A stretch of 64,000 nt of DNA from an uncultured delta proteobacterium (lineage in GTDB: Bacteria; Desulfobacterota; Binatia; Binatales; Binataceae), in contig CAWIHG010000005.1 of the NCBI GenBank assembly GCA_963835905.1, forward strand, positions 1,396,018-1,460,017, written 5' to 3'. How positions within the stretch are numbered: the stretch's first letter is position 1; every line of letters starts with the position of its first letter. Positions 15,342 to 61,267 of this stretch are shown here, piece after piece. A program made the translations under genes and the position numbers. The notes beneath the pieces are model-generated. The model searched no databases. It worked only from the letters and a program-made list of their open reading frames with translations, and was not told the origin of the DNA.

Positions 15342-16382
15342 CTAAGCTCTGAATTCAGGATTCTCAGGCAGCGGCGCGACGGCGGCGCCTGGAAACTGAA
15401 CCAGGTCGGTTCGCCACCAGACCAGAAAGGTCTCGAAGTCCAACGCGTCGACGGCCAAGCCGACCAAATTCTCCGCCAACACGTCAACGTCCCGATCATC
15501 CAAAGTCGCTCGCTTAGGGGAATTGGAACGGTAGAAGTAGAGTATGAACCCCGGATACAGTGCAGTATGCGGCGGCAAGTCGTTTATCTCCGCCTGGCTC
15601 CCGGAGGGTCCGCTCGGCTCCGTTCCCGGCATACCGTTTGAAATCACCAGATTTCTCTCAGAATCGTCGTCCGGTTGGCCCGGGATCCACAAAGCATACG
15701 CTGGGCTGACGACTTTGGACTGCCGGTCAAGCCGAAGGAACCTCCCAACGGCATCGTCGAGCAGGGTGTTGGGGTTCAGGGGATAACCAAGTCCATCTTC
15801 CGGACACGAATGCTCCCAGTCGTCTATCATCTCCGGCTGCGCGTCGTCCGGTAATATCGCGAAGAAGCTCCCCTTCAATATATCTATTCTCTCGCGCACC
15901 TTTTCGCGGACGAAGCTGCCCGTCAGTTGCTCTAATAGATACTCCGCCGCTTTGTCGGATTCGTTCACCGGATGCCAGACAAGCCTGGTCCTTTGAGGAT
16001 AATGGACAGTGCTGGTTACGTCATCGATAAGGTACCGCACTCCGACCTTTAGGCCGCTCAGGCGGCGCAGTATTTCTGGCGGTAGGTCGAGGTCCACATC
16101 GGGATCGTCAATCCAGCAGTCGATAGTGACTCGCTTGCCGATGGGAAGTTCTTCTACGCCGCTTTGTCGCGCTTCCAGAAAATCACACCAATACTCAATC
16201 TGGGCGCCGGGGCGCATCGTGGTCCTGAGTGAAGCATCGATGTGTCGTATCCACAATCCCGTAAAGAATTTGACGTTATCGGCACGCTCCATCCAGTCGC
16301 TGTCGACGCCCAGGACCTTCGAGACGTAGTCGGGGTCGACTCCTTCAACCCGCAACGAAACTCGGCTGTACTGCTGTTTCAT
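15342..16382 (-). CDS. Hypothetical protein (346 aa), possibly tandem DUF4279-like
   Basis: Lower GC (~55%). The N-terminus VSLRVEGVDPDYVSKVLGV resembles DUF4279-type proteins by recollection. Its start overlaps the end of rhs fragment 3. Confidence 0.55.
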   Translation of the reverse strand: MKQQYSRVSLRVEGVDPDYVSKVLGVDSDWMERADNVKFFTGLWIRHIDASLRTTMRPGAQIEYWCDFLEARQSGVEELPIGKRVTIDCWIDDPDVDLDLPPEILRRLSGLKVGVRYLIDDVTSTVHYPQRTRLVWHPVNESDKAAEYLLEQLTGSFVREKVRERIDILKGSFFAILPDDAQPEMIDDWEHSCPEDGLGYPLNPNTLLDDAVGRFLRLDRQSKVVSPAYALWIPGQPDDDSERNLVISNGMPGTEPSGPSGSQAEINDLPPHTALYPGFILYFYRSNSPKRATLDDRDVDVLAENLVGLAVDALDFETFLVWWRTDLVQFPGAAVAPLPENPEFRA

Positions 16383-16700
16383 GATCCTGCAAGGCCAGCG
16401 CCGCGACCATCAGCGTCGCGATACTGCCGCTCGAATTCACAAGAGCAATCGTACTGCCGAGCGCATCACGCAGCAACGCTACGCTTCCCGTCGAATCGGT
16501 GCTCACAAACCCGTCATCAAGCCACAACCCCGACAGAATGTCGATCTTTCCGCTGATCGATGACTGCACCCGCGCCGCGTTGATCCCGTCGTTCACGTAA
16601 TTGTCGATGATTGTCCCGGTGTTCTGCTGGACCCTTCTGCCCAGCGCGTCGTACCTTGTTTGTGCGGCGGACGAGAGTATCTGAGCGGGACGTGCTCTGA
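16345..16700 (-). pseudogene. Orphan rhs fragment 3 (YD-repeat / core region only, no start, truncated)
   Basis: Translation ...TRYDALGRRVQQNTGTIIDNYVNDGINAARVQSSISGKIDILSGLWLDDGFVSTDSTGSVALLRDALGSTIALVNSSGSIATL then runs out of frame; the expected YEPFG...NPY...RARYY...DPxGL tail is missing. Confidence 0.55.
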
Positions 16701-16873: not shown

Positions 16874-17377
16874 TCAAGCGGCCCAGCTCAACACGAGAAT
16901 TATCAACAGCGCCGCTACCACGGCCCACGCGAAGGCACTGGCGAGAGCGTCAAACTCCAGCGGGCCATGAAACGTTCCCATGGTGTTCATAAAACTGACC
17001 TCAACTGGCCCAAAGTTGAGGGTGTCACCACCCCTGATTCGCGTACTCCGCTCAATCCGCCGTCCGTTGATAAAGGTTCCGCGCGTCGAACCCAGATCCT
17101 CGACAAAATATCGATCGAGAAACCGCCGCGTAATTTTGGCATGATGCGCGGCGACTTGAGGATCCGCGATCAGCACGCCGCAGTCACTCGCACTGCCAAT
17201 CAGCGTCTCACGCCAGCCGAGGGTGTGTTCGTGGCGGCCTGAACCGTCGATCCTCAGCAAGTACGTCGGTTTTTCCTCGGGTGGGCGAGGACCATCATAG
17301 CCAGGGATGGGCCTCAAACCGAACCGACCGGGAGGACCGGTGGCTTGCTGAGACCGATTATGGCGATATTTACCCAT
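16874..17377 (-). CDS. FHA-domain protein with C-terminal transmembrane anchor
   Basis: FHA signature GSASDCGVLIADPQVAAHHAKI...VEDLGSTRGTFINGRRIE...GDTLNFGPV, and C-terminal helix FAWAVVAALLIILVLSWAA. Confidence 0.65.
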   Translation of the reverse strand: MGKYRHNRSQQATGPPGRFGLRPIPGYDGPRPPEEKPTYLLRIDGSGRHEHTLGWRETLIGSASDCGVLIADPQVAAHHAKITRRFLDRYFVEDLGSTRGTFINGRRIERSTRIRGGDTLNFGPVEVSFMNTMGTFHGPLEFDALASAFAWAVVAALLIILVLSWAA

Positions 17378-17525: not shown

Positions 17526-18077
17526 TCACGCAGCCGCGCCGGATTTGCCGCTGACTCCGGACTTGTGGGCGCTATGTCTCACTTTGAACGGTACAATGAT
17601 TCCAATTGCACAAATAGCTCCGACTGCGATCAGGGGCCAACTCTGCAGTGCTAGCCCTTCCACAATGCCGACAGTCGCAAGCGCGGCGGATCCAATTCCA
17701 ATCGGAACTGCCCGACGTTCCTTCGGTACAAGGCGCAGCCAGAGAGCGACAATGAAGGCGGTCGTCGAAAGCGGAACCACTGCTAAGTGATCCTCGGTTA
17801 GAAGAAATACCGCCAGCGCCAGTCCTGATAACGAGAACAGGAAGCCGATCGCCTCGATGACTAAACGAAACGTCAGCGAGGAAGAGGTGCGCATCTGCCA
17901 TCCAAGCGAAAGGCCCACAACCCCGCCTAGTGCGCTTGAACCGGCAAGTATCGGCAATTCGGCGGCCCCGGCGACACTCCAGAAGCAATAACCGATCACT
18001 GCTCCGACCAGCACGCCTACGGAAACGAGTCCAGCCAAAAACGCAATATCACGGTTCTCCTCGTTCATCGTGGGCAC
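17526..18077 (-). CDS. Multi-TM membrane protein, candidate immunity protein for the upstream rhs-tip toxin
   Basis: 183 aa with about five predicted TM helices. Lies immediately downstream of the orphan toxin domain and has low GC. Confidence 0.5.
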   Translation of the reverse strand: MPTMNEENRDIAFLAGLVSVGVLVGAVIGYCFWSVAGAAELPILAGSSALGGVVGLSLGWQMRTSSSLTFRLVIEAIGFLFSLSGLALAVFLLTEDHLAVVPLSTTAFIVALWLRLVPKERRAVPIGIGSAALATVGIVEGLALQSWPLIAVGAICAIGIIVPFKVRHSAHKSGVSGKSGAAA

Positions 18078-18134
18078 CTCCTCAGCTGAGCACGCTTACT
18101 TCCGCGGCGAGTGTCGCTTGATCTCCGAACGGAG

Positions 18135-19105
18135 TTAGGGGCTGGGAGCCGCCGGTCCTGCTATTCCGGGGGCACCTGCAGCACCTTGAAAGAGCATTGA
18201 ATCTATAAGCCCGTCTTCAACGATTGCGACGGTGGCGCCCACGGCCATTCCGAGGAGCACACCTATCGCGATACCGGGCAGGCCCCCGATCTCACCAATG
18301 GCGGCGCCGATTTCGGCAAACTCCTCGATGTCTAGAGGTATCAGTGCGGCGCGGGCGAAGAGCTGCCCAGTCGAGGGCTGAATGCCAGAAAGGCTGCCGG
18401 GTGCGCCGACGCTCGGTCCCGACACAGCGGCCATCTCGCCTGCCCCGATGCCCGCGTCTGCCTCGGCAACGCCAAGCGGGGAGTTGGCTCCGGATTGCGC
18501 GGCTTCGTATGCAGCGATCTGGCCCGCAGTATCATTCTCAGATGAATCGCCTCCTGAACCGCCGCCTCCAGTAGCCGAGTTGTTTCCGCCTGCACCTCCA
18601 GCGCCGGGGCCCGAGTGGACCCACTCCCAACCGTTAAAGGTTTTCACGGCAGCCCACGCGTCGTCGGCCGATCCTCCGCCGCGACCCGTGGGGTCTGTGA
18701 GCTTCGTCGGAGCGTCCCCGACATACGCGAAGAAATTGGGCTGGCCGCCGCCGAGTCCCAGCGGGTCGGACGAGATGAAGCGGCTGCGAGGCGCGCCCGA
18801 GCAGCCGTCCTGAGCCGCCCGGCGAAGGACCCCCACAGCGGATTGTAATAGCGCGCGCGCATGAAGTAGAGCCCGCTTTGATCCAACTCGCGCCCCGCAA
18901 ACGCGTAAGGATTCGTCGTCGATGCGCCGCTGGTCGAGGTCTTGCCGAACGGCTCATACGTGTCTTGGGTGGCCAGACTTCCGCCCGAGTTCACGAGCCC
19001 GATCGTACTGCCGAGCGCGTCGCGCAGCAACGCCACGCTTCCCGTGGAATCGGTGCTCGCAATTTCATCATGCGGTGACAGAACTGAGGAGCCTTGGTCG
19101 AGCAT
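18135..19105 (-). pseudogene. Orphan rhs C-terminal tip 2 with Gly-rich toxin domain (frameshifted)
   Basis: Frame 1 gives STDSTGSVALLRDALGSTIGLVNSGGSLATQDTYEPFGKTSTSGASTTNPYAFAGRELDQSGLYFMRARYYNPLWGSF. A frame switch then gives RFISSDPLGLGGGQPNFFAYVGDAPTKLTDPTGR plus a ~190-aa Gly-rich domain ending in a glycine-zipper helix GLPGIAIGVLLGMAVGATVAIV. Confidence 0.6.
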
Positions 19106-19152: not shown

Positions 19153-19920
19153 TTATCTCAAGAAATAAGGCGCTATGATAAACAGGGCACCATCAAGCAG
19201 CGAGTGTGCGATCACGCAGGTTCCAACGTTCCGTCGCCAGACGTACAAAAGGACCAAAACCAGTTGTGGCAACAGGAACGTGTAAAGCACCTTCAAGCCC
19301 CAATCGCTGTGAGCAATCATCGAGCCCGCTAACGCCGCACAAGCGCCCCAGAAAATGCTTCCTGACCAGGTTTCGAATCGTTCTATCACATAGCCACGGC
19401 CGCATTCTTCGACCATCGCATCCCAAATCACCGCCACCGCTCGAGCCCATACGGGGAGGGCGAGGGCACGTTCAATTACGGATGTAAGGGCGGGATTGGC
19501 ATCTTGGATGCCGAATACCCAGAAAAGAATGTAGGCCTCGGCGTAAGCCAGAAGAAAACAAGAAAAAACCCCTGCGAGCGCGGGCGGAATTTCAGTAAGA
19601 GTTGGCAGCCGCCAGCCCGCCGACGCCAAAGGCTGGCGCTCCCAGCGGGTGATTATTGCCGCGAGGAAGACTATTGGCGAAAGAGCGTAAACCGCAGCTG
19701 CACCGCGCCCCAATTCGCTGGAGAACCGAACGTGTCCCAATACCTCGGTCACCTGCGGAATATCCGGAAGCAATACGAGGCCATAAGCCGACAGGACGCC
19801 CGCAAATAAGGCAGCTGGATTGACTCGTCGACGCAGGGCCGGCTCATCTGCGCATGTTTTAGTCCCTATTTTCAGAGCGTTTGGTTGTTCTCCTGTCGCA
19901 TTGCTACTGGTCACATGCAA
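19153..19920 (-). CDS. CPBP family intramembrane metalloprotease (Abi/CAAX-protease-like), candidate immunity protein
   Basis: Motif 1 EECGRGYVIERF (EExxxR), motif 2 FWGACAALAGSMIAHS (FxxxH), motif 3 HSLLDGA. Start overlaps the stop of the upstream toxin ORF by 10 nt. Confidence 0.7.
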   Translation of the reverse strand: MHVTSSNATGEQPNALKIGTKTCADEPALRRRVNPAALFAGVLSAYGLVLLPDIPQVTEVLGHVRFSSELGRGAAAVYALSPIVFLAAIITRWERQPLASAGWRLPTLTEIPPALAGVFSCFLLAYAEAYILFWVFGIQDANPALTSVIERALALPVWARAVAVIWDAMVEECGRGYVIERFETWSGSIFWGACAALAGSMIAHSDWGLKVLYTFLLPQLVLVLLYVWRRNVGTCVIAHSLLDGALFIIAPYFLR

Positions 19921-20900
19921 GCTCCGGACAGACTCAGGCCGTTGGGTGCTTGCATCATAGGGGCATCCGGCCGCTCAAGGCTCGCTGCGTTCAGAATGGC
20001 CCGCGCCGCAGAACCGAGTGTCGAGCAACCGGAATAGAATGAGGCCTGCGTCGTGGTGTTCGGCACGAAATCCAGATTCGAGTAACTCGGCAAATTCATC
20101 ACGGGCGGGAGATGAATGCGCGGATCTCCAAATATATATATCGCGAGTTTTCCGAGTAACGTAAAGAATACTCCTCCAAAACCCAGAATATACTTGGGCT
20201 TCGGCTTCGGCGTTGGCGTTGGTTTCGGCTTCTGCTTTTGCTTTGGCGCTGGCGGAGGAGGATCGGGTGGTGTCGGAGGCGGGCCGGGGCTGCCGCCCCA
20301 CACTTCGCCCGTTGGATCGACGAAGTTCATCGGGCTGTTGCCGACATACGCGAAGAAATTCACCTGGCCGCCGCCGAGACCGAGCGGATCTTGCGAGATA
20401 AAGCGGCTGAGCAAGGGATTGTAGTACCTCGCGCGCATGAAATAGAGCCCGGATGCGTCCAGCTCGCGCCCCGCGAACGCATACGGATTCGTCGTCGAAG
20501 ACCCGCTGCGCGAGGTCTTCCCGAACGGCTCGTATCCGTAACTCGTCGCGATGCTGCCGCCCGAGTTCACGAACCCAATCGTACTGCCGAGCGCGTCGCG
20601 CAGCAACGCCACCGCTCCCGCTGGAATCCGTGCTCGCAAACCAGTCATCGAGCCACAGCCCCGACAGAATGTCGATATTCCCGCTCATCGAGGACTGCAC
20701 CTGGACGGCGTTAAGCCCGTCGTAAACGTAGTTGTCTATCGTTGTCCCGGTATTCTGATGGACCCGCCGCCCCATCGCGTCGGACCGCTCGAATGGCAGC
20801 GTGTCAACCAGAAGCCGATGCGGTGTGTTTTCGCGCACGTGTACTCCGTAGTGAGAAGTGCTATAGTAATTCGGGATGGATATGAGGTTGCACAGGCGAA
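19911..20900 (-). pseudogene. Orphan rhs C-terminal tip 1: RHS core end + Pro/Lys-rich linker + small C-terminal toxin (one +1 frameshift)
   Basis: ...YVYDGLNAVQVQSSMSGNIDILSGLWLDDWFASTDSSGS, then a frameshift (one inserted g), then AVALLRDALGSTIGFVNSGGSIATSYGYEPFGKTSRSGSSTTNPYAFAGRELDASGLYFMRARYYNPLLSRFISQDPLGLGGGQVNFFAYVGNSPMNFVDPTGE. Followed by PPPTPPDPPPPAPKQKQKPKPTPTPKPKPK and a ~110-aa low-GC toxin with a hydrophobic helix YILGFGGVFFTLLGKLAIYIFG. Confidence 0.6.
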
Positions 20901-27064: not shown

Positions 27065-28543
27065 ATGGAAACCAGGCTGTTCATTGCCGGAAGCTACTCG
27101 GATGCAACTTCCTCCGCGCGCTTCGAGGATATCGAGCCCGGGAGCGCCGAGCTGCTCGCCACCGTGCCCGAAGCTTCAAGCAACGATATCGAGCGCGCCG
27201 TCGCAGCCGCGCGTCAGGCCGCCGACGGCGGCGCCTGGCCCGCGATGTCGACCGACGCACGCGCCGCGGTGCTCGGGCGGATGGCCGACGGAATCGAGCG
27301 GCGCGCTCAGGAACTTGGCCGGCTCGAAGCGCGCGACGTGGGCAAGCCCGTCGCCGAATGCGTCAATCACGATATAGCGCGCGCCGCGAAAAACCTCCGC
27401 TTCTTCGCCGCCGCCGCGCAGGCGTGGACCCAGGAAGCCTCGCTCGGCGACGCCAAGTTCCTGGGCGAGGACCTGCGCCTGGCAAGCCTGACCCAGCGCC
27501 CGCCGCTCGGCGCCGGCGCGATCATCATTCCGTGGAATTCGCCCCTGATGCTGGCGACGTGGAATCTCGGGCCGTGCCTGGCCACCGGCAATACCTGCGT
27601 GCTCAAGCCCAGCGAGATGGCGCCGCTCACCTCGATCGCGCTGGGCGAAATTGCCGCGGAAGCGGGACTGCCGCCCGGCGTGCTCAATATCGTCACCGGC
27701 CTCGCGCAGACCGGACAGGCGCTCGTCTCGCATCCGGGAATTGACGCAATCGCGTTTACCGGCGGCGCCGCGACCGCACGCAACGTGATGGCGGCGGCGG
27801 CGCAGTCGCTCAAGCGCGTCACGCTGGAGCTGGGCGGCAAGTCACCCAACCTGGTCTTCGCCGACTGCGAGCTGCGGCGCACCGCCGTCGGCGTGGCGCG
27901 GTCGATCTTTCGCAGCCAGGGACAATCCTGCGTCGCGGGATCGCGCCTGGTGGTCGACCGCCGCATCGCCGATGATTTCCTGGTGCTCTTGCTCGACGAA
28001 GTGAAGCGGCTTCGGATCGGCGATCCGCTCGATGAGCGCACCGAGTACGGACCGCTCATCTCGGCGGCGCATCGCGAGCGCGTGCACGGCGTCGTGACCG
28101 AGGCGGTCGCCGGCGGCGCAAAGCTGCTCTGCGGCGGAAGCGCGCCGGAGGGTATCACGCGCGGGTTCTATTATCTGCCGACGATCCTCGACCGCGCAGC
28201 GCCATCCTCACGCGCGGCCAGCGAGGAAATTTTCGGGCCGGTGCTCACCGTCGAGCGCTTCGACGGCGAGGACGAGGCTGTCGCCGCGGCCAACGCGACC
28301 CGCCATGGATTGGCCGCCTATGTATGGACGCGCGACGTGAATCGCGCGCTGCGCGTGGCGGAAAAAATCAAAACCGGGATGGTGTGGGTCAACAGCTTCT
28401 TCCTGCGCGACCTGCGCACCCCGTTCGGCGGCGCCAAAATGAGCGGGCTCGGGCGCCAGGGCGGCCGCTGGGCGCTGGAGTTCTGGACCGAACCGAAGCT
28501 GGTGTGCCTGGCCTATCCCCAGACGGATCGCAACGAGCGCTGA
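27065..28543 (+). CDS. NAD(P)-dependent aldehyde dehydrogenase
   Basis: 492 aa with ELGGKSP and catalytic-Cys region QGQSCVAGSRL. Confidence 0.9.
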   Translation: METRLFIAGSYSDATSSARFEDIEPGSAELLATVPEASSNDIERAVAAARQAADGGAWPAMSTDARAAVLGRMADGIERRAQELGRLEARDVGKPVAECVNHDIARAAKNLRFFAAAAQAWTQEASLGDAKFLGEDLRLASLTQRPPLGAGAIIIPWNSPLMLATWNLGPCLATGNTCVLKPSEMAPLTSIALGEIAAEAGLPPGVLNIVTGLAQTGQALVSHPGIDAIAFTGGAATARNVMAAAAQSLKRVTLELGGKSPNLVFADCELRRTAVGVARSIFRSQGQSCVAGSRLVVDRRIADDFLVLLLDEVKRLRIGDPLDERTEYGPLISAAHRERVHGVVTEAVAGGAKLLCGGSAPEGITRGFYYLPTILDRAAPSSRAASEEIFGPVLTVERFDGEDEAVAAANATRHGLAAYVWTRDVNRALRVAEKIKTGMVWVNSFFLRDLRTPFGGAKMSGLGRQGGRWALEFWTEPKLVCLAYPQTDRNER

Positions 28544-58672: not shown

Positions 58673-59530
58673 CTACCCCGTTTCAGTAGACAGAGTTGGG
58701 CTTGTGCGGAATTCCGCTGGATGGCTCCTTTGGTAGTTGATAGGCGAGAGATAGTCGAGGGCCGAATGGCGGCGGTGAGGTTTGTACCAACCTTCGATAA
58801 AATCGAACACCGCCATCCGCGCCTGGGCCTGGGTTCTGAAGTTTTGTCGGTTGAGCAGCTCGGATTCGAGAGTGGCGAAGAAGCTCTCGCACATGGCGTT
58901 GTCAAAACAGTCGCCCACCGAACCCATCGAGGGCCGCCCCCGGCCTGTTCGCAACGCTTCCGAAGGCGACCGACGTATATTGGCTGCCTTGGTCGGAATG
59001 ATGGATCACGCCGGCGGGACGGCGCTGTACCAGCGCCATGTCAAGGTCTTTGAGTACCAGCTCGGTACGCAGATAAGTCTTCATCGCCCAACCCACTATC
59101 CGGCGGCTGAAGACGTCGAGCACCACGGCCAGATAGAGAAGGCCGGCCCAGGTTGGAATGTAGGTGATGTCGGCCACCACAAACGGTTGGGCGCCGCGGC
59201 GGTGAAGTTGCGTTCGACCAGGTCGGGCGCCGGCCGGGCGGCGCGATCACGCACCGTAGTGATGATCCAGTTGCACCACCCCCGGATCACGGTCCGGGGG
59301 CCGGCTGCGCGCATCAATCGCGCCACGCGTTTGATGCCCGCCCTAATGCCTTGCTCCGCGAGGTCGACAGGGATGCGCGGCGCGCCATAGGTCCGGCGCG
59401 AGCGACGATGGATCTCGGCGATCCGCGCGCTCAACTCGGCGTCCGCGCGAGCTCGTGCCGAGGGCGGACGCTTGAGCCGCGCGTAATAGCCACCGGGGGA
59501 GACCGCCCAGTACGCGGCACCTGGTGGCAA
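58673..59530 (-). mobile_element. IS3-family transposase (orfB) remnant, fragmented over three frames
   Basis: ORFs 59096..59530, 58902..59180 and 58673..58954 together give ...RRTYGAPRIPVDLAEQGIRAGIKRVARLMRAAG.../...VADITYIPTWAGLLYLAVVLDVFSRRIVGWAM...IHHSDQGSQYTSVAF.../...DNAMCESFFATLESELLNRQNF...ARMAVFDFIEGWYKPHRRHSALDYLSP. That is a DDE transposase with frameshifts. No orfA was found. Confidence 0.7.
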
Positions 59531-59919
59531 TCCGATGTATGGCCCGGTTAGCCCCTACGAATGCGAACGCCGCGATGGGTCCGTTTATATTTTTTCCGGT
59601 GCGCGCGCAGGCACCCTCTCTCCGCCGCTCCGACCCTCGCTCCGGCACCGCCGCTGCGCGATTGATCGTGACCTGTCGCAAGCGGGGGGCAAGGCAAGCG
59701 CACGCTTCCCCCGCGCTCTGTGCGAGCGGTTTTCCGGCGCTCGCCGATTGCGGAAGCGGGATAAGCGCGCCCCTGTGATGAGCGGGCATCAAGGCAACAG
59801 CACCTTGTGGCGGACCGAGCGGGCGTTAGCGATTTCGGGCTGAGGGCAAACGGCGCTGCGAGCGGCGCCATCGGACTGACTATTAGTCTAAAGACTCGCC
59901 GCTGCTTGTCAAGCCCGTT

Positions 59920-61267
59920 TCAGGCGGTGGCGTCATTTTCGCGGCCGGTGAACTGATATGGATTGGTGCTCGATGCGCGCGACGCCGTCGTGTTCCCGAA
60001 CGGTTCGTAGGTGTATGAAGTCTGAATTGCTCCTGCGGAATCCGCGAGCGCCAGCGTGCTTCCGAGCGTATCGGTCAGGAAGTCGCGACTGCCGGCGGAG
60101 TCGGTCCTCTGAAAGTACTCGTCGATGTTCAGCCCGGTGAGTAGATTTGCCGACGGGCTCCCGGACTGGATTTCCTGCACTGGATTCAGGCCGTCATACA
60201 GGAACTGGGTCGTGGTTCCTGCAATAGTTTTGCTGACCCGCCGGCCGAGCGCGTCGTACCCGAAGCTGGCCGTCACCGCACCGCTGATCCCAACCAAATG
60301 ATTGCGCGCATCCCAGCTATAGGTGTTGCTGCCATCGTTGGTCAGGTTTCCATTCGCATCATAGGTCATCACGGTCCCGTTGAACGAAGTCATCTCGTTG
60401 TCCGCGTTGAACGTGTTCCCCGTCACCGCTTGCGGCAGATTCGTCTCCGCCATGCTGCCCGTCTTCTCGATGACGCGCCCGTCGGCATCATAGCTGTATT
60501 CCAGGTCGCCGATCTGGTTGCCCGCCAGCGTCCAGGTCATCCCGCTCACCCGCGAGTCGGCGTTCCTTTGGCGCAGAGGGCCCCTCTCGCTGCCCCTTCG
60601 CTTTCGCTCAGGGCTGCGGCTCCAATCGGGCGCCGAAGCGGCGGCTCAGGACAGGCTCCACTATATGTCACCACTATCCCATTGGGCAGCGTGAGCTGCG
60701 TCCTTCGATTGGCGTTGTCATATTGGAACGCAACCGAGCCGGTTCCCTGCGTAACTCCTGTCAATCGGTTCGCATTGTCCCACGTGTACGAGACCTGCGT
60801 CTGCCCCGCCACCGTCAGCGTCGCCCGCCGGTTCGCGTTGTCGTAGCTGTAGCTCACCTCGCCCAGCGGGGTCTGCTCGTCGGTCAAACGATCGAGACCG
60901 TCATAGGTCCGCGCGATCGTCCCGGCGATCGAGTCCGTCGCTCCGGTGAGGCGATTTCCGCCGTCCCACGTATAGCTGATTGAGCTCTGATATCCGCTGC
61001 CGTTGTAGCCATAGCCCGCGAAGGTGCGGCGGTTGAGGCCATCGTAGCTGTATTTCGTGATGTTTCCATCGCGATCGGTGTGCTGGGTCAGGTTTCCGTT
61101 ACCGTCATAGGAATAGTTCTCGACTGCATTCAGCGCGTCTGTGCGCGAACTCCGGCGGTCCATGTTGTCGTACGTGTACCTGGTCTGGTTCGCGTTGGCG
61201 TCGGTGACTGAAGTGAGGTCGCCGCCGGTATAGCTGAAGTGGACCGTAGCGCCCGCCGCGTTGTTGA
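59920..61267 (-). pseudogene. rhs-family YD-repeat protein, internal fragment (no start, C-terminus truncated, internal frame break)
   Basis: YD repeats: YSYDGNGNLTQHTDRDGNITKYSYDGLNRRT, YTWDNANRLTGV, FQYDNANRRTQLTLPNGIVVTY. A frame break near 60550-60662 is followed by EYSYDADGRVIEKTG...YDANGNLTNDG...YDALGRRVSKT...YEPFGNTTASRASSTNPYQFTGRENDATA, then a stop exactly where RHS cores continue (GLYY.RARYY). There is an upstream in-frame stop at 61268-61270 and no Met. Confidence 0.65.

Follow-up and report, generated by a model that had tools for sequence, protein, structure and literature searches.

The locus described here raises the question of whether a variable tip carried by a fragment of an Rhs gene is, or was, a toxin acting on membranes. 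It lies in a 64-kb stretch of DNA (the window: 64,000 nucleotides, positions 1,396,018 to 1,460,017 of contig CAWIHG010000005.1) from an uncultured delta proteobacterium of the Binataceae, where an open reading frame (ORF) on the − strand, 18135–18836, holds in its first 52 residues the end of an Rhs-associated core, RSRFISSDPLGLGGGQPNFFAYVGDAPTKLTDPTGR, followed by the variable tip. The ORF exists with exactly the translation quoted in the original prediction, which had proposed a membrane-depolarizing toxin with membrane-level immunity encoded downstream. On balance, and with modest confidence, we favor reading the locus as an orphan Rhs C-terminal cassette in an acquired island, in which a putative membrane-inserting toxin tip is paired with a candidate membrane-embedded immunity protein and the toxin half is silenced. 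The cassette, referred to as module B, lies in a 6-kb island (∼15.2–21.2 kb) with one further Rhs module on either side of it.

Composition and predicted helices of the tip

The tip (18138–18680, − strand) has 181 residues and is dominated by glycine and alanine, with 40 Gly (22%) and 36 Ala (20%), together 42%, and a further 15 Ser. It is also strongly acidic, with 18 Asp and Glu as against 2 Lys and Arg (net charge −16), and contains one His and no Cys. Its parts are as follows.

18381–18680, − strand: tip residues 1–100, Gly/Ala/Ser-rich, acidic, and of low complexity; predicted disordered linker or entry region (composition, AlphaFold2)
18288–18344, − strand: tip residues 113–131, predicted acidic amphipathic helix LIPLDIEEFAEIGAAIGEI (hydrophobic moment, AlphaFold2)
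18219–18287, − strand: tip residues 132–154, predicted hydrophobic glycine-zipper helix GGLPGIAIGVLLGMAVGATVAIV (Kyte-Doolittle, Gly i+4 spacing, AlphaFold2)
18135–18218, − strand: C-terminal tail of the tip, EDGLIDSMLFQGAAGAPGIAGPAAPSP, and TAA stop (sequence reading)

The sole hydrophobic peak of the tip falls at about residues 132–154, with a Kyte-Doolittle mean of 2.35 over 19 residues (≤2.51 in an 18-residue window), and it contains five glycines at i+4 spacing (G132, G136, G140, G144, and G148), with G125 and G129 ahead of them and A152 behind. An extended glycine zipper is defined as (G/A/S)xxxGxxxG or GxxxGxxx(G/S/T) (PMC12744356), and the series G132-G136-G140-G144-G148-A152 repeats this motif inside the only hydrophobic peak, near the C terminus. 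The Gly/Ala-rich tip with a single C-terminal membrane helix of GxxxG-like spacing, as originally described, was thus recovered, and the predicted transmembrane helix is present with an extended glycine zipper. AlphaFold2 modeled a helix at residues 134–165, with a predicted local distance difference test score (pLDDT) of about 66–73. The helix before it (LDIEEFAEIGAAIGEIGG) reaches a maximal helical hydrophobic moment of 1.08 at residues 113–130 and was modeled as helical at residues 118–132. These two C-terminal helices are the best supported parts of a model in which the only other helices are three short, isolated ones of low confidence, with pLDDT <50 at residues 12–44 and 60–100. The tip protein ends 27 residues past the zipper, and a second in-frame TAA lies between the tip stop and the next gene.

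When the whole tip was shuffled, at least five Gly at i+4 spacing were obtained in 5.6% of shuffles and an equally high hydrophobic peak in 0.4%, and the glycine run and the hydrophobic peak occurred jointly in 0.01% (1e-4). The glycine run in the C-terminal 60-residue segment by itself was seen in 0.4% of shuffles. The tip frame is free of stops over 181 codons, an outcome found in 0.7% of nucleotide shuffles, and the five other frames have 2–6 stops each. GC content by codon position in the C-terminal third of the tip (0.76/0.52/0.58) agrees with that of other island genes, and the Gly-rich tip region contains no DNA tandem repeat of note. Because of these shuffle frequencies, the open frame, the codon-position GC, and the lack of a tandem repeat, the tip ORF appears to be coding sequence that is real or was so until recently, and the zipper motif is no compositional accident.

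With the tip as query, the word index of 5.8 billion clusters gave its own gene only, and an exhaustive phmmer search of 1.84 billion representatives gave the tip itself and two weak artefacts (a repeat protein and a TPR protein). No relatives were found in GTDB genome contigs, where the species representatives searched do not include the window's own genome, or in JGI metagenome contigs, and a tblastn search against plasmids was empty. The tip presumably resembles the Gly-rich class II microcins or bacteriocin IIc, a likeness that we take as a lead only; no Pfam match was obtained at E ≤ 10, including Bacteriocin_IIc and the Gly-zipper families, and neither Pfam nor the phmmer search of 1.84 billion representatives gave homology to a characterized glycine-zipper toxin. 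NCBIfam had no match in the tip region, the Protein Data Bank (PDB) had no sequence match, and Foldseek of the low-confidence AlphaFold2 tip model against the PDB returned nothing below E = 5. A soluble enzyme fold was looked for by all four of these routes and none appeared, and the lack of any matching enzyme family or fold is consistent with the proposed membrane-acting product. A Logan contig of 1358 bp, retrieved by exact look-up, is 100% identical to window 18800–17443; it is probably from the same population and so is without comparative information.

The membrane protein encoded downstream

A small gene on the same strand lies right after the tip, in the position of an immunity gene, with its ATG at 18068, 66 nt past the tip stop.

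17526–18068, − strand: candidate immunity gene (P0002), 180-aa polytopic membrane protein (hydrophobic peaks, AlphaFold2)
18077–18083, − strand: Shine-Dalgarno-like GAGGAGG, 8 nt before ATG 18068 (sequence reading)

The start of this gene is likely the ATG at 18068 rather than a GTG at 18077. Six hydrophobic peaks were found in the 180-aa product, for which AlphaFold2 modeled six helices (mean pLDDT 55.8), and because of these two results six spans are preferred to five. Of the five-transmembrane immunity candidate originally proposed, the multi-spanning protein is therefore real, but a six-helix protein starting at ATG 18068 is more likely. Arg and Lys are gathered in loops 60–68 and 112–119 and in the C-terminal tail, with acidic residues in the alternate loops, a charge pattern that fits six spans with both termini cytoplasmic (positive-inside). 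The candidate was a singleton in the indexed search of 5.8 billion clusters and has no Pfam or NCBIfam family. Immunity to channel-forming effectors comes almost always from polytopic membrane proteins (PMC12744356), and a predicted polytopic inner-membrane protein (six segments, positive-inside) is encoded here beside the putative channel-forming effector. The proposal of immunity at the membrane level fits this arrangement.

GxxxGxxxG motifs were seen in both helix 1 (G18, G22, and G26) and helix 2 (G48, G52, and G56) of the immunity candidate. Two or more such motifs occurred in 3.3% of shuffles of the membrane protein, and their presence is a hint that they may pack, zipper to zipper, against the toxin helix.

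These features suggest a mechanism in which delivery, insertion, oligomerization, ion conduction, and protection are all steps that we infer. On an intact Rhs protein, the tip would be kept within the Rhs shell and then cut free at DPTG, and the released tip would be delivered to the envelope of a neighboring cell. The zipper helix would insert in the cytoplasmic membrane and self-associate by its glycine face, giving a small channel that could be lined with glutamates of the amphipathic helix and that would depolarize the membrane. The six-helix protein would prevent insertion or assembly inside the membrane, possibly with its own GxxxGxxxG helices packed on the toxin helix. In the present state of the locus, the immunity gene alone is likely of use to the host.

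The interrupted Rhs core and its island

The conserved junction named in the original prediction is real but is only one part of a core split over two frames. TIGR03696 (Rhs_assc_core, NCBIfam) positions 43–75 correspond to residues 18–51 of ORF 18135–18836 (E = 2.6e-6), while positions 1–46 (...TNPYAFAGRELDQSGLYFMRARYYNPL) fall in the frame of another ORF, 18644–19105 (E = 2.1e-9). As read from the translation, DPLGL-(19 residues)-DPTGR sits directly before the tip. The locus thus has an Rhs core ending in DPxGL-(∼18)-DPxG before a variable tip, spread over two frames, and lacks an unbroken frame that takes in a complete YD-repeat shell and a delivery domain at the N terminus.

18836–19075, − strand: 5′ part of the Rhs core fragment of module B, STDSTGSVALLRDALGSTIGLVNSGGS...YFMRARYYNPL (TIGR03696 1–46, in the frame of ORF 18644–19105)
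18789–18835, − strand: 47-nt frame-shifting insertion between "YYNPL" and "RSRFISSDPLGL" (RSRFIS) (alignment with core copies)
18681–18788, − strand: 3′ core part, in frame with the tip and ending as given above, with the DPxGL...DPxG autoproteolysis motif (TIGR03696 43–75, sequence reading)

The 5′ core part shares 81–82% DNA identity with the other two core copies of the island. The disruption for which frame repair had been foreseen is the 47-nt insertion, and since it breaks the frame, the tip is untranslatable as part of an Rhs protein from the present DNA. Core homology of module B starts only at ∼19075, straight after a CPBP gene, and a YD-repeat shell and PAAR and VgrG genes are all absent upstream of the module. 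RHS repeats in the 64-kb window are confined to a degraded fragment, 59920–61163. The RHS-repeat body there (region 58673–61163, − strand) is split over two frames, 59920–60549 and 60546–61163, and is cut at "...TGRENDATA" by IS3-type transposase remnants (with HTH_21 and rve domains that are fragmented in turn).

A search with the repaired core led to an ENA contig, L082 (4.7 kb), which contains CPBP genes, Rhs cassettes, and an ORF related to a 346-aa ORF of the island. The first cassette of L082 (∼1170–1216) has the same 47-nt insertion, identical at 46 of 47 positions, in a surrounding core that is only ∼81% identical. Alignments showed the insertion to be missing from module A and from module 3 of L082, and it occurs once in the window. 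Between module B and L082, the insertion is better conserved than its flanks. Because it is so nearly identical within a diverged core, the sequence comparison indicates that the insertion is no assembly artefact and is either old or was spread via gene conversion. The tip behind the insertion in L082 differs from that of module B and is of the module A type. A likeness of the tip start to an L082 Rhs tip start (GGGAS...HQGGAGENG) was not significant (BLASTP E = 0.55), and a 26-mer of the insertion had no exact match in JGI metagenome contigs. Programmed −1 frameshifting over the insertion, which would restore the frame, was rejected: the 300-nt frame overlap contains no X XXY YYZ site, and the RNA fold was no better than that of shuffles (z = +1.1). 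A less likely reading is that the insertion is a selected silencing or recombination element and not damage.

The frame break invites the alternative, improbable in our estimate, that module B is a decaying pseudogene: the cassette would have been dead since the insertion, the tip would be a drifting remnant, and at most the membrane-protein gene would be under selection. On this explanation, the Gly/Ala richness and hydrophobic stretch no longer mirror, or never mirrored, a working toxin. The insertion is common to the ∼19% diverged L082 and hence not recent, module A has a 1-nt indel, module C is truncated, the other Rhs body of the window is frameshifted and IS-cut, and no tip homologue appeared in any database searched, all of which agree with decay. 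The tip frame, however, remains open over 181 codons (0.7% of shuffles, with 2–6 stops in the other frames), the zipper and hydrophobic peak coincide beyond chance (1e-4), the toxin–immunity spacing and the Shine-Dalgarno are still intact, and L082 has a different tip behind the same insertion, which may thus have spread by gene conversion instead of marking an old death.

The GC content of the island is ∼0.57, compared with 0.63–0.68 in its flanks, and GC at third codon positions is 0.57–0.69 in island genes versus 0.80–0.86 in flanking metabolic genes. Neither a tRNA nor an integrase was found at the island borders. The island, in which all three modules are damaged, was probably acquired horizontally.

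19911–20838, − strand: module A, Rhs core and tip; the core has a 1-nt indel near 20620
∼16413–16700, − strand: module C, core stub without DPxGL motif or tip; truncated, ending before DPxGL

The module A tip combines a linker rich in Pro and Lys with a hydrophobic helix, YILGFGGVFFTLLGKLAIYIFG; it overlaps the gene start of a CPBP/Rce1-like (PF02517) membrane protein (region 19153–20838, − strand). By sequence, module A looks like a second membrane-type toxin/immunity pair, and this neighboring combination of a hydrophobic tip with a membrane protein supports the interpretation of module B given above. L082 likewise has a module A tip start followed by a CPBP gene. An ORF of 346 aa after module C (region 15342–16700, − strand) has no Pfam match; because it is homologous (BLASTP 1e-11) to L082 ORF 3610–4299, which follows an intact Rhs tip, it is probably an immunity gene left stranded. 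The immunity candidate and module C are separated by a gene for an FHA-domain protein of 167 aa with a C-terminal hydrophobic anchor (16874–17377, − strand; PF00498, E = 1.5e-17). In the flank, an aldehyde dehydrogenase (27065–28543, + strand) finds its best matches, at 72–76% identity, in Candidatus Binatus/Binataceae and "uncultured delta proteobacterium" metagenome-assembled genomes from soil, and the host is on this evidence probably one of the Binatota.

Orphan rhs-CT/immunity modules consist of a tandem core stretch, a variable tip, and an immunity gene, have a GC content below that of the host, and are silent until recombined. The island is reminiscent of such arrays in its tandem cassettes with core homology, tip, and immunity gene and in its low GC; it differs in that no intact main rhs is found upstream, every module is damaged, and the insertion is shared with a diverged relative.

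Relation to known toxins and competing readings

The unusualness implied in the original prediction was overstated, as a pore-forming Rhs tip with membrane immunity is known (Tse5/Tsi5; PMC9637101), and so are zipper toxins (PMC10434224; PMC12744356). Tse5 (RhsP1, PA2684) is an effector of the H1 type VI secretion system of Pseudomonas aeruginosa whose C-terminal 149 residues insert in membranes, form cation-selective pores, and depolarize cells; immunity is conferred by Tsi5, an integral protein of the cytoplasmic membrane with 2 transmembrane helices (PMC9637101). As in Tse5, where the motif is DPxGL-(18)-DPxGL, the tip stands at the Rhs C terminus straight after the autoproteolysis motif, has no enzymatic domain, and adjoins a membrane immunity gene; both tips have predicted transmembrane and amphipathic helices, and depolarization is a feature of Tse5. 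In contrast, the Tse5 C-terminal domain (Tse5-CT) is net basic with several transmembrane or amphipathic helices, whereas the tip described here has a net charge of −16 with one hydrophobic and one amphipathic helix; Tsi5 has 2 transmembrane helices and the immunity candidate 6 predicted ones; and Tse5 is a full-length PAAR-Rhs protein encoded beside a VgrG gene, as opposed to a frameshifted orphan fragment. No match to the Tse5-CT family was found by phmmer among the 1.84 billion representatives, and the comparison otherwise follows published descriptions.

A second parallel is offered by TelE and EsxX, LXG toxins of the type VIIb secretion system that depend for toxicity or depolarization on an extended glycine zipper at the C terminus and are encoded alongside six-pass membrane proteins (PMC10434224; PMC12744356). 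ExiC/ExiD protect from extracellular toxin (PMC10434224; PMC12744356), and the six-pass protein adjacent to TelE gave no protection against cytoplasmic toxin (PMC10434224). TelE, EsxX, and TspA share with the present pair the character of polymorphic toxins, a C-terminal zipper in a hydrophobic helix, and a six-pass neighbor; the known systems depolarize or destabilize membranes, and in TelE the zipper is required for toxicity. They differ in having an LXG/type VII secretion scaffold in Firmicutes instead of Rhs in a probable member of the Binatota, and they are not similar in sequence. For cytoplasmic protection, EsxX and TelE further require a soluble DUF5085-type immunity protein, of which none was seen at this locus; an Rhs shell could take that role.

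Ionophores of contact-dependent inhibition (CDI) systems, the CdiA-CT EC93 family, are contact-delivered, dissipate the membrane potential, include one helix with a putative glycine zipper, and are neutralized by hydrophobic membrane CdiI proteins (PMC11630599). They resemble the present pair in joining a polymorphic toxin with a zipper helix to a membrane immunity protein. Their predicted five-helix bundle and folded entry domain nevertheless contrast with the two predicted helices after a disordered region seen here, and their CdiI proteins are two-helix hairpins of 72–100 residues, versus a six-helix candidate of 180 residues. On these published features (PMC11630599) and a low-confidence AlphaFold2 model, the tip does not belong to the CT-EC93 family. 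The bacteriocins CdzC/CdzD of Caulobacter are small, Gly/Ala-rich, hydrophobic GxxxG peptides that kill via the membrane and are countered by multipass membrane immunity (PMC5380434, as summarized in PMC10240207 and PMC10434224); they differ in being free peptides exported by type I secretion with double-glycine leaders, with no Rhs fusion.

These systems also bear on whether a membrane-targeted tip need form a channel. The zipper may instead anchor or translocate the peptide, as does the N terminus of Tde1, or bind an inner-membrane protein, with toxicity arising by inhibition of a target, an explanation that we judge somewhat less probable again than decay. The Tde1 zipper serves translocation and not killing (PMC10240207), CDI ionophores need specific membrane-protein receptors (PMC11630599), and a strongly acidic tip with one hydrophobic helix is atypical of spontaneous pore formers. 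Against a translocating or target-binding role, no cargo domain follows the zipper, past which only 27 residues remain, and the N-terminal 100 residues are of low complexity without family or fold match. Least likely, and very improbable, is a soluble enzymatic toxin of new fold, its globular core enclosing the hydrophobic segment, for although many Rhs tips are unannotated enzymes and single-sequence AlphaFold2 may miss true folds, the tip is 42% Gly and Ala with low-complexity runs such as GPGAGGAGGNNSATGGGGSGG, has one His, no Cys, and two basic residues, matched no family, PDB sequence, or Foldseek entry, and adjoins a gene for a polytopic membrane protein and not for a soluble inhibitor.

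Several points weigh against the membrane-inserting toxin that we favor. A toxic, depolarizing function is read from sequence features and gene context only, for a tip and an immunity candidate that were singletons in every database searched. The glycine run by itself is not rare in a tip with 22% glycine (5.6% of shuffles). The very acidic composition (18 Asp/Glu to 2 Lys/Arg) is unlike that of Tse5-CT (19 positive and 13 negative residues), and acidic residues on both sides of the hydrophobic helix are unfavorable for spontaneous insertion. Both AlphaFold2 models are of low confidence, with pLDDT 49.7 for the tip (single sequence, no alignment) and 55.8 for the immunity candidate. Adjacency is no proof of immunity, as the six-pass neighbor of TelE illustrates by analogy. 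An orphan cassette without a shell and with a shifted frame cannot, as it stands, yield a deliverable toxin, and its tip may be drifting. Of the membrane-depolarizing toxin originally proposed, the zipper helix and the lack of an enzyme fold held up, but the function itself derives from motif and context, for a tip without homologues in a disrupted cassette.

The pair is best filed, from its sequence features, as a sequence-unrelated example of an established functional kind, within none of the families above by sequence. A bolder proposal, which we hold tentatively and regard as rather doubtful, is that the tip founds a new, sequence-unrelated Rhs toxin family, a strongly anionic single-zipper peptide that would form cation channels and be neutralized within the membrane by heterotypic glycine-zipper packing with the six-helix protein; it would be the first such system from the uncultured phylum Binatota.

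As the kind is already established and the present copy is silenced and without homologues, its value is mainly as a candidate for experimental panels. If the favored interpretation is true, a very small channel module, composed of an amphipathic and a glycine-zipper helix, would join the payloads of Rhs proteins, and this payload would be strongly acidic, unlike Tse5-CT, and would come from a phylum known only via metagenomes. A minimal, sequence-unique zipper toxin whose immunity partner also bears a zipper would offer a handy model for how membrane immunity stops channel assembly.

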